Virus record (IMG/VR): IMGVR_UViG_2778261572_000009
Coordinates: 1 to 6,930 of that record
Reading direction: 5' to 3' (one strand)
Length of the DNA: 6,930 nucleotides
From: a virus
Taxonomy: Duplodnaviria; Heunggongvirae; Uroviricota; Caudoviricetes
The notes beneath the pieces are model-generated. The model worked only from the letters and a program-made list of their open reading frames with translations. It was not told the origin of the DNA and searched no databases. The translations under genes were made by a program, and so were the position numbers. Positions 137 through 6,888 of the stretch are shown in pieces (the stretch's first letter is position 1; each line of letters opens with the position of its first letter).

Positions 137-1099
137 TTAATACAGTTTTTTCGCGCAGTCCAGCCAGTCGCCTTTGAACGGACGCTTCATGTTTTCGATA
201 GCGTCGATGATGTCGTGGTGAACCAACTGTTCGTTCTGGATACCTACGCAACGACCGCCGTAACCTGCCAGCAGCAGATCGATAGCGTAAGCGCCCATAC
301 GGGAAGCCAGAATACGGTCGTAAGGCACCGGAGAACCACCGCGCTGGATGTGGCCCAGCACAGTTGCGCGGGTTTCACGACCGGTTTCTTTCTCGATGAA
401 ATGCGCCAGTTCGTCAACATCACACATATGTTCGGTAATCGCCACGATCGCGTGTTTTTTACCTTTCGCGATACCCGCTTTGATTTCATTTACCAGGTCT
501 TCACGGCTGAATTCAACTTCCGGAACCACAACGAATTCACAGCCACCGGCAATGGCCGCAGCCAGCGTCAGATCGCCACAATAACGGCCCATCACTTCCA
601 CCACGGAAATACGCTGGTGAGAAGAAGAGGTGTCACGCAGACGGTCGATCGCTTCTACAACGGTGCTCAGCGCAGTGAAGAAACCGATAGTGTAGTCAGT
701 GCCTTTGATGTCGTTGTCGATAGTGCCCGGCAGACCGATGCACGGGAAGCCCATTTCGGTCAGACGCATTGCACCCATGTAGGAACCGTCACCGCCGATA
801 ACCACCAGCGCGTCGATACCACGTTTTTTCAGGTTTTCGATAGCCACGGCGCGGATGTTCTCGTCGCGGAATTCCGGGAAGCGCGCAGAACCGAGGAACG
901 TACCGCCACGGTTGATCATGTCAGAAACGCTGTAACGGTCTAGCTGTACCATACGGTCTTCATACAGACCCAGATAGCCGTCATAAATGCCCATTACTTC
1001 CAGACCTTCTGTCAGCGCAGAACGAACAACCCCGCGAATTGCGGCGTTCATGCCTGGCGCATCACCGCCGCTTGTCAACACACCGATTTTCTTAATCAT
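137..1099 (-). CDS. pfkA: ATP-dependent 6-phosphofructokinase I
   Basis: The 352-aa minus-strand ORF contains the E. coli PfkA sequence from [23 protein letters not shown] to the C-terminal [13 protein letters not shown] place the start at the internal ATG (complement of 1097-1099), which gives 320 aa and is preceded by GAGG (revcomp of 1104-1107). The 32 codons upstream in the ORF track are an artefactual extension. Stop TAA at 137-139. Confidence 0.95.
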
Positions 1100-1279: not shown

Positions 1280-2182
1280 TTATGAAAGCATAGACCGTTT
1301 ACCCTCCCTGGGTACGACGGAACAGGGGTCCTGATGGATAATTACATCCGATCCCGGAAAACGCCGTAAAATAGCCTGCTCTACCTGATCCGCCACCATA
1401 TGTGCCTGAACCAAAGGCAGAGAGTCTTCCATTTCCAAATGAATCTGAATAAAGCGGGTCGGCCCTGACTGCCGCGTGCGAAGATCGTGAGCGCCGCTAA
1501 CACCCGGCCAGGAAGTCACGATATCAATAATTTCTTGCCGTTCCTCATCAGGCAATGCGCGATCCAGTAATGACTGTACCGCCTCATATCCCATGCGTAA
1601 CGCGCTATATAAAATATAGATGCCGATTCCCAATGCAAACAGAGCATCGGCGCGATGCCAGCCGTACCAGGACAACCCCAGCGCCAGCAGAATTGCGCCG
1701 TTCATCATAACATCAGACTGGTAATGTAGCATATCAGCCCGCACCGCCTGGCTTTGCGTCCGGCGCACCACCCAACGCTGAAACGAGACAAGGATAATCG
1801 TACAAATTAGCGCCACAATTGTCACGATAACCCCGACGCCTGGATCTGTCATCGGTGTTGGAGATATCAGATGTTGAATACCCGTCAAAAACAGGAATAG
1901 TGCCGAACCGGAGATAAACATACTTTGCGCCAGCGCCGCGAGGGACTCTGCTTTACCGTGACCAAACGAGTGATTATCGTCGGCAGGTTGCAGGGAATAT
2001 CGCACCACCAGTAAATTCGTCAACGACGCGCCGATATCCACCAGCGAATCCACCAGCGCGGCGAGAATACTCACCGACCCGGTATACCACCATGCAAAAA
2101 TTTTAATCAGCAATAGCAACGAAGCCATCGCCGTCGCAGCAATCGCCGCCCGACTGACCAGCCGTCCATAAGATTGATTCAT
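1280..2182 (-). CDS. fieF: Cation diffusion facilitator family metal (Fe2+/Zn2+) efflux pump FieF/YiiP
   Basis: Translation from [25 protein letters not shown] to [10 protein letters not shown] matches FieF (YiiP), 300 aa, with the hydrophobic TM segments and HSFGHGKAE motif typical of CDF transporters. Start is ATG at complement 2180-2182, preceded by GGGAG. The ORF-track start at 2200 is a TTG-initiated extension. The fieF-pfkA adjacency matches E. coli gene order. Confidence 0.93.
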
Positions 2183-2263
2183 AAATACTCCCGCTATCAA
2201 CTGACGCTAGTATAACGGAAGCAAATCATCTGCAATGCATTAAGCAGCAGGCAAATTGAGGAT

Positions 2264-2290
2264 AAAAAAAACCCCCACATCATGTGGGGG
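2264..2290 (-). terminator. Rho-independent terminator candidate upstream of fieF
   Basis: Stem CCCCCAC (2272-2278) / GTGGGGG (2284-2290) with a 5-nt loop. On the plus strand it is preceded by A8 (2264-2271), so on the minus strand it is a GC-rich hairpin followed by U8. Confidence 0.55.
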
Positions 2291-2328
2291 AAGACAGGGA
2301 TGGTGTCACAAAAAAGCACCTAACCTGA

Positions 2329-2350
2329 TGATATAAATGGATTTATATCA
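2329..2350. repeat. Perfect AT-rich palindrome (10-bp arms, 2-bp spacer) in the prophage/chromosome junction region
   Basis: TGATATAAAT (2329-2338), GG, ATTTATATCA (2341-2350); the arms are exact reverse complements. Its nature (protein-binding site or recombination-related) is unknown. Confidence 0.4.
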
Positions 2351-2380
2351 ACCACTGTCCACATAGCGTCCACATCGACC

Positions 2381-2416
2381 ATAAATAAGCCCCTCAACTG
2401 AGGGGCTATTTTTGTG
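2381..2416. terminator. GC-rich hairpin immediately downstream of ogr; candidate ogr terminator, possibly bidirectional, and possibly overlapping the prophage att core
   Basis: Perfect 8-bp inverted repeat AGCCCCTC (2388-2395) / GAGGGGCT (2400-2407) with a 4-nt loop. It is flanked by ATTTTT on the plus strand (2408-2413) and by TATTTAT when read on the minus strand (revcomp of 2381-2387). It starts 11 nt after the ogr stop. Confidence 0.45.
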
Positions 2417-2417
2417 A

Positions 2418-2636
2418 TCACATCCACATAATTTGCTGCCCTGACGGCAACGGGTGCGGCCTCACGGCGTGGACTTCTCCCGGCTTCACGATGTATCTCT
2501 GTACCGACTCATAAGTGATGAACGTGGCGCTGCAATTCACGTTCTGGCACTGGTGATAACGCTCTTTTGTCGTGTCAGTGATATAGCGGCTTGTACGCGC
2601 ATGTGCGGCATGCTGGCATAAAGGACAATGAAACAT
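2418..2636 (-). CDS. ogr: P2-type late gene transcriptional activator Ogr (zinc-finger, Ogr/Delta family)
   Basis: The 72-aa product MFHCPLCQHAAHARTSRYITDTTKERYHQCQNVNCSATFITYESVQRYIVKPGEVHAVRPHPLPSGQQIMWM matches P2 Ogr as I remember it, with the CxxC...CxxxxC zinc-binding arrangement. Start is the internal ATG (complement 2634-2636) preceded by AGAGG; the 21-codon extension in the ORF track is rejected. It lies directly downstream of the gpD-like ORF, as in P2 (D-ogr-att). Confidence 0.85.
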   Translation of the reverse strand: MFHCPLCQHAAHARTSRYITDTTKERYHQCQNVNCSATFITYESVQRYIVKPGEVHAVRPHPLPSGQQIMWM

Positions 2637-2717: not shown

Positions 2718-4178
2718 TCACTCATCATCTTCTGTTTCGTACTCCACATCAGAAAGCCTGACCTCAAGCTCTAAGGACGTCGTGAAGCCGCTATTATTCA
2801 GAAAATGTGTCACCTTAGTGATTGTCCAGTCCTGCTCGTCTATGACGCGCTTAAAGCCTGACACTTTAACCGGTGTTTCCGTGTAAATATCTGCCCGACC
2901 GGTAGCCAGGCTGATGGAAAACTCCGCGACGCCCCGTTGCAGTTTGTCCCACTTCGCCTGAGCGGCGCGCATGGCCTGCGCTTTCGTGGCATATACCGTG
3001 GTCAGTGCAAAAACGTTGTCAGCCTCACCGGCCATGTATTCACCTTCGCGCGCTTCCGGTACTTTAGGCGCTTTCTTCTGCGTGACTGGTTTCGCTTTCG
3101 GGTGCTCCAGTGCGCGCAGGTGTTTCTCTTTCTTTTTGCGTTTCAGTTTTACCTTCTGCTTTTGCGGCTTCGGGTCTTTGGTGTGTAACCACTTTGCCGT
3201 TACGCCGGTATAGGCTCCACGGTCAGCAATCGCAAAATGATGACGGTCACCGTCGCTGCGGGTGAGGGTAATCTGCGGGATTTTTTTACCGCTGGCAGTC
3301 ACCCCCTGCCCCGCTTTGAGAAACAGCAGTTTTCCCATTTTTACCGACACCTCACCGCCGTTGCGTTCAGCAAGACGGGTCAGGAATTTCGCATCAGACT
3401 CCTGCGACTGGTCGATGTGCGGGATTTTAATTCCGGCCAGTGACGGAGCGACACTGGCTTTCAGCCTGTTACGGGTGGCCACCCCGACATTGGACAGCGT
3501 TTTATGCCAGCCCTGCTCCTGGTCGATTCTGGCACGCAGACCCAGCGCACGGGCGGTGGCATACGCGGTGGCGGTGGTGCTGGTGACCGTATCCCATGCG
3601 AGGAAATCCGGCCAGATGACCATCAGCTCACGCTGGCTGAAATTCTGGCGGTAGGCTTTCACCTCGGAAATGGTCTTACAGCCCCATGCGCTGATATACC
3701 CGAAAGCGCGCAGCTTCTGACAGACGGATACCAGTGCAACAGCCACCTCTTTGGTGTCCAGTCCCGGCACACCGAGAATACGCGGTTTAACACCGGTTAC
3801 CGACTCCGCCGCCAGCAGGGCTTTCAGTCCGGTGTACTGACCGTTTTCGTCGGTGGTGCCGATGATATTGGAAACGGTCTGCGCAAGTTTCGTTTCCTCG
3901 TCGTCGCCGGTGCCGTCTTCCACACGCACGACAACGGTGACCGGTTTTGACTGGTCGGCGATGGCCTGCAACGATGCCGCCAGCGTGCCTTTTTTACCGG
4001 CCTTTGCAATTGCGCTCTGCACATTGGTAATCAGCACTGGTTTATTGAGGGGGAAGATTTCCGCATCCGCATCGCTGGCCGTGCAGACCATGCCAACAAT
4101 GGCGGTGGATACGGTGGAAATGACGCGGGTGCCGTCGTTAATCTCCAGCACCTGCACGCCGTGATGATAGTCACTCAT
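2718..4178 (-). CDS. Chimeric ORF: N-terminal ~233 aa of P2-like tail sheath protein (gpFI) fused in frame to C-terminal ~250 aa of P2-like tail protein D (gpD); deletion remnant, probably non-functional
   Basis: Residues 1-233 (MSDYHHGVQVLEINDGTRVISTVSTAIVGM ... GWHKTLSNVGV) match the N-terminus of P2-family tail sheath proteins from memory. From about residue 234 (ATRNRLKASVAPSLAGIKIPHIDQSQESDAKFLTRLAERNGG ... VRLSDVEYETEDDE) the sequence matches the C-terminal part of P2 gpD. The RBS GGAG (revcomp of 4187-4190) lies 8 nt upstream of the ATG at 4176-4178. The ORF is intact, but the FI C-terminus, FII, E/E', T, U and the D N-terminus expected between these halves are absent. Confidence 0.8.
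   Translation of the reverse strand: MSDYHHGVQVLEINDGTRVISTVSTAIVGMVCTASDADAEIFPLNKPVLITNVQSAIAKAGKKGTLAASLQAIADQSKPVTVVVRVEDGTGDDEETKLAQTVSNIIGTTDENGQYTGLKALLAAESVTGVKPRILGVPGLDTKEVAVALVSVCQKLRAFGYISAWGCKTISEVKAYRQNFSQRELMVIWPDFLAWDTVTSTTATAYATARALGLRARIDQEQGWHKTLSNVGVATRNRLKASVAPSLAGIKIPHIDQSQESDAKFLTRLAERNGGEVSVKMGKLLFLKAGQGVTASGKKIPQITLTRSDGDRHHFAIADRGAYTGVTAKWLHTKDPKPQKQKVKLKRKKKEKHLRALEHPKAKPVTQKKAPKVPEAREGEYMAGEADNVFALTTVYATKAQAMRAAQAKWDKLQRGVAEFSISLATGRADIYTETPVKVSGFKRVIDEQDWTITKVTHFLNNSGFTTSLELEVRLSDVEYETEDDE
3470..3490 (-). other. Deletion junction inside the FI::D fusion ORF (novel joint between sheath and gpD coding sequence)
   Basis: The sheath-like sequence ends at codon 233 (GTG, complement of 3480-3482) and the gpD-like sequence begins at codon 234 (GCC, complement of 3477-3479). 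The exact breakpoint cannot be fixed without the parental sequences. Confidence 0.6.
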
Positions 4179-4497: not shown

Positions 4498-5397
4498 TCA
4501 AAGAATTAGCACTTGCTCTTCACTAGAAACTATGGTTCTGACTTCACGCTCAAATATTGGATCCATTATCATTTTTCTATTTGTTGGAATAGTAAATTTA
4601 CCGAGTACCATGACAATGCTACTCAACGGAAATAATTTTGGAGTAACATTTCCTAATTGAATCGTAGGATATATATTAAAGCCCCCTTTTATCCTCATTG
4701 GCGAACCTTCAATGAAGTGTCGATAATTAAATTTCGCCATAGGGATTCTCGCCACATGCACTTTCATAATTACAGCAACCTGAGCTATTTTTACTTTCTG
4801 GAGGTAAGTTGACAATCGTTCTAACTGCGTTGTTTCATAGAAAAAATCAGACCACGTTACAGTACTTGTTCCAGTAACAATTTTTATGCTGTTTCTCTTG
4901 TTGGGGTGAGCTTTTCCATATTCATAGATCTCCCGTAAGCTATCCATGTTCTTCACATAAGGGGCTTTCCGACCTCTCTTGACATAAACGCGGTCTGTAG
5001 TATCAGAAGGTGGATTTGCCTGCATAGCTGCAGCTTTTCTGCTTAATTTAGAGATATCATCTTCATCGAGTATATGTATACGGAATATATTATTACCTGT
5101 GGCAAGCGCACGGCTGATATCATGACTGGAATCACTTGCATAAATTGTATTCAATCCTGAAGTTCCATACTGGCATAATTTGTCATGCGTGAAATTTTTT
5201 TCCAGTCTAAAGAAGGCGGGGATATGCAAGGTTTTATTAAAACTCCGACGAATATGGCTTTTGACATACACCAAATGAGCAGAGCAATTTGGGTCAGGAC
5301 ATTTGAGTGGATAGGGATTAACACTATAATTAAAAGTATTTACATTTACTAAAATCTGATTGTTATCAATAGCCTGAGTTATACGAATACCACTCAT
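4498..5397 (-). CDS. Hypothetical protein, 299 aa, AT-rich cargo gene in the prophage G-FI (Z/fun) variable slot; function unknown, candidate defence or lysogenic-conversion factor
   Basis: A 900-bp uninterrupted ORF with ATG at complement 5395-5397 preceded by GGAGGAG (revcomp of 5401-5407) at good spacing. Hand-counted GC is about 30-38% on sample lines, versus about 70% in the adjacent sheath/D ORF. It is flanked by 215-bp and 319-bp spacers with no convincing ORFs. I recognise no protein family in it. Confidence 0.75.
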   Translation of the reverse strand: MSGIRITQAIDNNQILVNVNTFNYSVNPYPLKCPDPNCSAHLVYVKSHIRRSFNKTLHIPAFFRLEKNFTHDKLCQYGTSGLNTIYASDSSHDISRALATGNNIFRIHILDEDDISKLSRKAAAMQANPPSDTTDRVYVKRGRKAPYVKNMDSLREIYEYGKAHPNKRNSIKIVTGTSTVTWSDFFYETTQLERLSTYLQKVKIAQVAVIMKVHVARIPMAKFNYRHFIEGSPMRIKGGFNIYPTIQLGNVTPKLFPLSSIVMVLGKFTIPTNRKMIMDPIFEREVRTIVSSEEQVLIL

Positions 5398-6141: not shown

Positions 6142-6888
6142 TTAAACGCTCGCTACATTATACCAGGTGCCATTTATATACTTTTGAACGGGTCTGTAAT
6201 AAACGCCCGCTATATTATCGGCAGAGTTGGACCCTGTATCCTGAACATTAATACCAGACAATACATGACCTGACGGGCACTGGAAATTCCATGTTTGCCA
6301 GTTGTTCACTCCATAATATTGCTGTGACCCAAGTCGAACATCTTTCACATATCTGGAATCAAAATTGCCATAGTTGCCAGGAATAACTTGCGAGCCACAA
6401 AGCCAGTTACCGTTATTATCCATGTACGCCTGACCATCGGTGCCATTGGCTGTCCTTGAGTTATTAATCATGTAGATGCCAAATTGCTTGTTCCCCAGTC
6501 CACCTATCATGAACTTGCGGTCAGCGTGATTCTGGCGAAGCAACGCCTGAGCGCTATCAGTGTTAACTATATTTTTCCCAAAGATAGCGTTGTTATCGCG
6601 CATCTGAATCCACATACCATTACTGCTGTTAATAGCAAAACGGTCTGAAAGCGTCTCCCCTGAAACATTAAGGCCACGCCCCATCGAAACAGCGCCAGTA
6701 GCGTTATTAATCCATAATGGCCTTAATCCGTTATAAGTCCCCATGTTGTCACCGGAGTTTGTCAACATGAAGTATGTATTTGAACCATCATTACGAATAA
6801 AGAATCCGTAATTACCATAAGCAATACGTAGGCCGTTTGCTGATTTTGATATGACTTCGCCATTTACAATGGCATTGCGTATTTTCAT
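6142..6888 (-). CDS. Tail fibre protein, C-terminal receptor-binding module (gpH-like distal part), encoded as a separate 248-aa ORF
   Basis: The translation contains motifs I associate with distal tail-fibre domains ([18 protein letters not shown]...[17 protein letters not shown]) and sits immediately upstream of the cognate assembly gene G. The first ATG (complement 6886-6888) is preceded 4 codons upstream by an in-frame TGA and has only a weak Shine-Dalgarno sequence. Confidence 0.7.

Follow-up and report, generated by a model that had tools for sequence, protein, structure and literature searches.

The stretch of DNA analysed here (the window, 6,930 bp) is the entire contig NLMV01000115.1 of the draft assembly GCA_002229415.1, so that any attL, integrase and cox of the same genome would lie outside it. 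Its genes follow one another in the order pfkA, fieF, ogr, a 486-aa open reading frame (ORF), a 299-aa ORF, a tail-fibre assembly gene and a partial tail-fibre gene. The chromosomal side of the window carries pfkA (137-1099, minus strand) and, as the chromosomal flank, fieF (1280-2182, minus strand), which was identified from the list of ORFs together with the RefSeq annotation of an identical region (L001, L002). The last phage gene before the junction is ogr (2418-2636, minus strand), which codes for a late-gene activator (Pfam Ogr_Delta, E = 1.1e-21; ogrK in RefSeq). An earlier note, made from the letters of this DNA, had fieF starting at 2182 and ogr ending at 2418, and the RefSeq annotation of identical DNA gives the same boundaries.

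Beyond ogr, the 486-aa ORF (2718-4178, minus strand) was found by Pfam and by BLAST comparison with a full prophage (L001) to be an in-frame fusion of tail sheath and gpD. Matches to Phage_sheath_1 (residues 113-237) and Phage_GPD (residues 234-463) identify it as a sheath N-terminus joined to a gpD C-terminus, and the comparison with L001 revealed the 4,842-bp internal deletion, with its junction at 3479/3480, that created the fusion. The exact fusion protein is on record on two contigs only; the sheath breakpoint is shared by 69 complete genomes, all of which have lost more of D. This fusion marks the prophage as defective.

The 299-aa ORF (4498-5397, minus strand) is a cargo gene of low GC content (35-39%), which lies in a slot with the tail-fibre assembly gene on one side and the sheath gene on the other. 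Its product is a homologue of gp44 of phage WΦ (99.7% identical) and falls into phrog_7195, a group with no assigned function; no sequence match to it was found in Pfam, NCBIfam, PADLOC or PDB. By analogy with P2, which carries the cargo genes Z/fun at the same slot, this ORF may be a candidate defence or exclusion gene. At the far end of the contig, the last 55 bp (6876-6930) are identical to DNA flanking a copy of the IS21-family element ISEc12 in another genome (L008 34102-34156). The contig probably ends in an insertion sequence (IS) that truncates the tail-fibre gene, in which case the ATG at 6888 would not be a real start.

Position of the junction and the 47-bp att core

The interval between fieF and ogr (2183-2417) was searched against 5,426 complete E. 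coli genomes. All 5,426 matched positions 2183-2307, and the whole interval was matched in 790 of them. In an alignment with an empty, K-12-like cpxP-fieF site (L002), identity extended up to 2307 and broke thereafter; phage genomes, including those of WΦ, fiAA91-ss and L-413C, matched the window from 2261 rightwards. We then brought attB (L002), attR (the window, L001 and L004), attP (phage WΦ, L005) and attL (L003, L004) into a single register, and in this alignment 2261-2307 emerged as a 47-bp core, GATAAAAAAAACCCCCACATCATGTGGGGGAAGACAGGGATGGTGTC, common to all four kinds of site, with attR composed of the left part of attB and the right part of attP, and attL of the left part of attP and the right part of attB. 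The WΦ attP (NC_005056), the attR of the window and both ends of complete prophages elsewhere in E. coli have an identical core, from which the empty K-12 site deviates by one loop base. Its second copy lies at the int-cpxP junction of related prophages (L003, L004, L008), and complete prophages read fieF-attR-ogr-D-...-cox-C-int-attL-cpxP. Over 2261-2388 the window is 100% identical to the WΦ attP, after which there is a 1-nt indel.

The interval can be divided accordingly into a chromosomal arm of attR (2183-2260), which is the intergenic DNA upstream of fieF, just as at the empty K-12-like site; the att core (2261-2307), delimited in the register alignment by the start of the phage matches and the end of chromosomal identity; and the phage P arm of attP kept in attR (2308-2417), recognised by its identity to the WΦ attP and its alignment with P2 sites. 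These limits confirm the proposal of the earlier note that an attR junction lies within 2201-2417. Set against the prophage-free cpxP-fieF region and phage attP, as it had suggested, 2201-2417 yielded the core and was not continuous with the empty chromosome, and the matching attL, with an integrase gene at the other prophage end, is present in related genomes (L003, L004, L008). Several short direct repeats within the window (D1-D6, for example CATAAATACTCCC / CATAAATAAGCCC) were set aside as chance 8-13-mers, the true partner copy of the core lying outside the window.

The original description of WΦ reportedly gave a 47-nt identity at 88.6 min, a length that the register alignment bears out. 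The WΦ integration site has been placed at MG1655 coordinate 4104392 (PMC3448106), and the E. coli W genome paper lists a Wphi1 (P2) prophage at cpxP-fieF (PMC3032704). The earlier note had stated that cpxP lies directly upstream of fieF in K-12 and that the site is empty there; this is what is seen in K-12-like genomes. Its implication that a prophage here would occupy an unusual site did not hold, as this is the published WΦ site and is occupied in the 790 complete genomes counted above. The junction is thus one of an already known kind at an already known site. Given the junction alignments, the identity to the WΦ attP and the identity of the cargo protein to gp44, the element can be assigned to the WΦ-type prophages at the published WΦ site, and we are highly confident that 2201-2417 is the attR (P-O-B' in lambda nomenclature) of a defective WΦ-type prophage (Peduovirus, P2 family) at the 3' end of cpxP/CpxQ.

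The loop base that distinguishes phage and host cores also bears on where the strands are exchanged. At position 2280, in the terminator loop, every phage core seen has T, and K-12-like chromosomes have G. Using synthetic queries, we found exact G-allele attR sites in at least ~92 lysogens and no exact G-allele attL among 262 + 530 attL sites (queried with two P'-arm variants); strain M217 carries G at its attR and T at its attL. Position 2280 therefore stays with the fieF-side arm, which places the strand exchange (overlap) interval within 2281-2307. Natural polymorphism in this way confines the strand exchange of WΦ to 27 bp. For the majority of other phage lineages, host identity starts two bases further in, at a boundary between CA and CCATCCC that corresponds to window position 2305, so that the overlap is expected within 2281-2305. 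One candidate for the overlap itself would be the 7-bp GGGATGG (2297-2303), which is flanked by GACA/TGTC within a dyad at 2293-2307.

The core and the 3' end of CpxQ

The core contains a hairpin with fully complementary 9-bp arms (2272-2280 and 2282-2290; 100%) that is followed on the minus strand by U8 (2264-2271), so that the terminator-like element described in the earlier note at 2264-2290 is present at those coordinates. Three terminator-like sites were counted in 2000-2800 against 0.8 +/- 1.0 in shuffled sequences, and the stretch 2256-2330 has a folding z-score of -3.0. At the empty site, counting downstream from the cpxP stop codon, this hairpin occupies nt 32-50 and the U8 nt 51-58, and the cpxP 3' UTR, taken from that codon as far as the last U of the run, measures about 58-67 nt. 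On the minus strand, window 2264-2307 corresponds to the 3' ~44 nt of this UTR, including the terminator, with one loop base different in K-12. The stem-loop (2272-2290) and U8 are thus the rho-independent terminator of the host cpxP (2264-2290, minus strand) and the CpxQ 3' end, in a 5'-truncated copy that is cut off from cpxP.

CpxQ is an Hfq-dependent sRNA of ~60 nt that is cut by RNase E from the cpxP mRNA and comprises nearly its whole 3' UTR (PMC9438474); it begins with U, and its U7 pairs with nhaB (PMC10250213). The att core takes in the last ~44 nt of CpxQ, at its 3' end, and 3 nt past the U-run. As a result, the window copy shares with CpxQ the terminator hairpin, the U-tract and the conserved body that precedes them, but is without the 5' ~14 nt that include U7, and it does not lie downstream of cpxP, since phage DNA precedes it from 2308 onward. 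The place of this 5' seed, UUUUCCUUGCCAUA, is taken by the phage sequence ...GGUGCUUUUUUGU. For the ~14-nt extent of the seed we assume a CpxQ 5' end that is in part deduced from the published ~60-nt length, U start and U7. Judged by these features, the window copy is a 5'-truncated CpxQ and not an intact CpxQ gene, the intact gene lying at attL.

These data suggest a mechanism in which the phage integrated by tyrosine-integrase site-specific recombination into the cpxP transcript's 3' end (CpxQ). The WΦ attP carries a 47-bp copy of the CpxQ 3' end, reaching from inside the sRNA body through the hairpin and U8, and strand exchange in the cpxP-proximal 27 bp leads to duplication of the core on integration. 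At attL, the phage copy rebuilds an intact CpxQ and cpxP terminator, the host 5' ~14 nt being rejoined to the phage-borne copy. At attR, the other copy of the core, without the CpxQ 5' end, sits between the phage and the undisturbed fieF upstream region, where the duplicated terminator is placed to stop ogr/late-operon read-through ahead of fieF and might act as an insulator.

No paper that ties CpxQ to a prophage att site came up in a literature search, and we regard the CpxQ link of the WΦ core as a modest addition to a known site. Rfam gave no family at gathering score in the window, and no match to CpxQ by name was found in Rfam 15. Matches to STnc100 and anti-hemB in the window were dismissed as mere terminator look-alikes. 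On the plus strand there are sub-threshold matches to Hrs1 (RF02628, 'Hfq-regulated sRNA 1'), with 31.8 bits at window 2264-2330 and 41.4 bits at the empty site (L002 3082-3154), which, against a gathering score of 56.4, were not counted as evidence. The Hrs1 model starts with A7 and a hairpin and resembles the reverse complement of CpxQ, which suggests that this family may represent the opposite strand of the cpxP 3' UTR region.

The P arm, its conserved sites and alternative readings

In the P2 record (NC_001895) the order of elements is ogr, rho-independent terminator, Int P arm, IHF, attP core, Cox, Int P' arm and int. Read from ogr, the window aligns with P2 one element after another, over the terminator, then the arm repeats and then the stretch protected by IHF, and the two sequences diverge exactly at their cores. 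Adjoining ogr is a hairpin at 2388-2407 with an 8-bp stem (6 GC pairs) and folding z-scores of -6.2 and -5.6, which is terminator-like on both strands and is the homologue of the P2 'rho-independent terminator for ogr transcript and F operon'. The GC-rich hairpin with T-tracts on both strands that had been noted beside ogr (2381-2416) is therefore real, and we annotate it as a bidirectional terminator hairpin. Both this hairpin and that at 2264-2290 are predicted intrinsic terminators by virtue of their GC-rich stem-loops and U-runs. The ogr hairpin (window 2388-2416; loci L011-L090, downstream of ogr) has its T-run asymmetry reversed between the two types of arm: in WΦ-type arms there is an interrupted U-run, UUAUUUAU, in the ogr direction and a T5 in the int direction, whereas in P2-type arms the hairpin has U6 in the ogr direction. 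This asymmetry mirrors the orientation of the host sRNA terminator: that of CpxQ is oriented like ogr, and that of CyaR against it.

Further towards the core lie two Int arm-type repeats (2356-2374, minus strand), TGTGGACA (2356-2363) and TGTGGACG (2367-2374), 11 bp apart and homologous to the Int P arm of P2. Their shared TGTGGAC fits the published arm consensus of P2-type integrases, tgTGGaCa (PMC3448106), with a bare pattern count that is not above chance. They are followed by a putative IHF site (2321-2350, minus strand), assigned as the positional homologue of the protein_bind feature for IHF in P2, in which the consensus-like TATCATCAGGTTA (2321-2333) overlaps an AT-rich dyad (2329-2350). 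The match of TATCATCAGGTTA to the IHF consensus has one mismatch, and the 7 such matches in the window, compared with 8 expected, are not above chance. Because neither pattern count exceeds chance, the assignment of the IHF site and arm repeats rests on P2 homology and conserved position. The layout is constant across 50 distinct P arms that we anchored on the core: in the majority the arm repeats occupy positions -71/-60 relative to it, the AT-rich dyad spans about -47 to -26, and a hairpin adjoins ogr. IHF and Int would be expected to bind at these P-arm sites, so that the P arm to the right of the core could provide the accessory sites of an intasome, namely the AT-rich dyad or IHF-type bending site and the two Int arm-type repeats, along with the ogr terminator.

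The sequence AAATAAGCCC at 2383-2392, which the earlier note likened to the P2 attP core, is indeed an exact 10-nt sub-string of the 27-bp P2 core AAAAAATAAGCCCGTGTAAGGGAGATT, and this resemblance would favour a crossover at the ogr-adjoining hairpin, as in P2, with the fieF-proximal hairpin merely a neighbouring terminator. We consider such an arrangement, which the junction alignments refute, extremely improbable. Chromosomal identity stops at 2307, 76 bp short of AAATAAGCCC; the sequence duplicated at attL is 2261-2307 and not the ogr hairpin; and AAATAAGCCC aligns with the ogr terminator of P2 rather than with the P2 core, in the opposite orientation relative to ogr. The 27-bp P2 core was not found at the phage/host boundary, the window sharing 10 nt of it only. 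Lying in the stem of the ogr terminator, 76 bp into the phage DNA and oppositely oriented, AAATAAGCCC can be put down to a chance resemblance that does not mark the core. The AT-rich dyad of the P arm is the perfect palindrome reported previously at 2329-2350, TGATATAAAT-GG-ATTTATATCA, with 10-bp arms and a folding z-score of -2.6. Across 64 P arms (alignment A3, columns 36-57) it is paired in 87% of cells, compared with 35-48% in slid controls; compensatory double changes affect 5 of its 10 pairs, and its covariation score was reached by none of 500 shuffles, although the ~31 haplotypes that keep the symmetry are related sequences, representing few independent compensatory events. The symmetry of the dyad is kept by compensatory changes, and, as IHF recognition does not need dyad symmetry, an IHF site alone is an insufficient explanation for it. 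This leaves a tentative and on balance unlikely role for the palindrome as a separate element with functional dyad symmetry, not simply an IHF site, which could be either a transcript hairpin across attP or the site of a symmetric dimer. Against this, the homologous stretch of P2 is marked as IHF-protected, and the layout of an A-tract, 8 nt and a WATCAA-like element resembles the H' site of lambda. A strand-bias test for an RNA hairpin was likewise not convincing (about 6 A.C versus 3 G.T events). A possible second dyad at the second arm repeat was dropped, as it pairs in different registers in different lineages (alignment A3).

A further alternative concerns what the interval does now. It may be an inert scar, in which attR no longer recombines and the hairpins and repeats only terminate transcription, a state that we think quite possible while leaning somewhat towards the opposite. 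The sheath::gpD fusion with its 4.8-kb deletion, the IS that probably interrupts the tail-fibre gene at the contig end, and the loss of capsid, terminase and replication genes in related remnants all point in this direction. However, the core and P arm are 100% identical over 2261-2388 to those of the functional phage WΦ, and a remnant with the same sheath breakpoint (L004, one of the 69 genomes) has kept int, C, cox and attL intact. Since such remnants keep these elements, excision would still be possible without particle formation. Inertness would concern present activity and not identity, and is compatible with the interval being a WΦ-type attR, the explanation that we adopt in what follows.

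Related lineages and comparison with known systems

Scanning viral contigs for an 18-mer of the CpxQ body identified 116 loci from many P2-family lineages. Protein identities across these loci range from 30 to 100% for Ogr and from 39 to 100% for gpD (compared with the window), and from 65 to 100% for Int (compared with that of WΦ), while the host fieF is between 100% and ~77% identical, apart from a single locus at 49%. The layout is always gpD-ogr-P arm-core-fieF or cpxP-core-P' arm-int. On the fieF side, identity between phage and host stops at the end of the U-run, and the phages therefore carry the RNA 3' end and no more. The flank of one viral contig is the reverse complement of a primer from a study of Salmonella Infantis, which described a 31.7-kb insertion between fieF and cpxP. 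These sequence comparisons show that the CpxQ 3' end serves a clade of P2-family integrases as attB in hosts, Salmonella among them, whose fieF has diverged.

In some WΦ-type prophages the ogr terminator is separated from the Int arm repeats by additional DNA, and at several loci ogr lies ~840 nt from the core, compared with ~333 nt. In strain M217 (L008 956-3111) this place is taken by a hypothetical gene and IS150. Such additional DNA resembles a further cargo slot within the att region. A third type of att was seen among contigs with identical Ogr (L030, L060, L067), in which the same P arm is followed by ...ATATCAAAAAATGTCACCAATAACTGACATTGCGG..., itself with the look of a convergent terminator, and for which no Rfam family was found at gathering score.

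For annotation, the value of these results is that the prophage boundary is fixed to the base and that the window is recognised as holding a decayed WΦ-type element at its canonical site, where the P2-core motif is not the junction. They also link the conservation of the CpxQ sequence to its targeting by phages, in parallel with P2 and CyaR. The CpxQ link, the exchange region narrowed by a single-nucleotide polymorphism and the covarying dyad are modest additions to the known picture. It is improbable, in our view, that WΦ-type lysogeny goes further and rewires the Cpx envelope-stress response by way of the att core, the 3' two-thirds of CpxQ. If it did, one route would start from the phage and attR copy, in which the CpxQ body and its Hfq-binding terminator are fused to a lineage-specific phage 5' end, and which ogr/late read-through transcripts could yield as a chimeric sRNA akin to CpxQ or a competitor for Hfq; another would be for C-int transcripts at attL, which meet no terminator on their own strand, to run antisense into CpxQ and cpxP. 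The structural premise of both routes, the use of the CpxQ 3' end as attB, is firm, whereas the regulatory consequences for the Cpx response would be purely conjectural.

The closest known system is the attP/attB pair of phage WΦ, with which the window shares an identical 47-bp core, a match of 100% over 2261-2388, the same host site, the order gpD-ogr-att and a cargo protein 99.7% identical to gp44. The window differs from WΦ in that its prophage is decayed, with a sheath::gpD fusion, a probable IS at the contig end and a one-base indel in the flank of the ogr terminator. With the attP of P2 it has in common the order and spacing of the ogr terminator, the TGTGGAC arm repeats and the AT-rich, IHF-protected dyad, together with an integrase of the same family. 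The cores, however, are different: the 27-bp core of P2 is the 3' end of the sRNA CyaR (an Rfam CyaR match of 100.7 bits lies directly after the P arm in a P2-type junction), and its terminator is directed against ogr, whereas that of CpxQ has the orientation of ogr. More generally, temperate phages and islands are known to carry the 3' end of an RNA gene from the crossover to the transcript end, and so to rebuild the gene (PMC3448106). Such 3'-end integrations include those of 186 in tRNA-Ile, Fels-2 and SopEΦ in ssrA, and P2-like phages at cyaR and rybB (PMC3448106; site list in PMC3032704). The WΦ-type junction follows the same principle of RNA rebuilding as these tRNA, tmRNA and sRNA integrations, but its target is a 3'-UTR-derived sRNA that has no dedicated promoter and is cleaved out of the cpxP mRNA.
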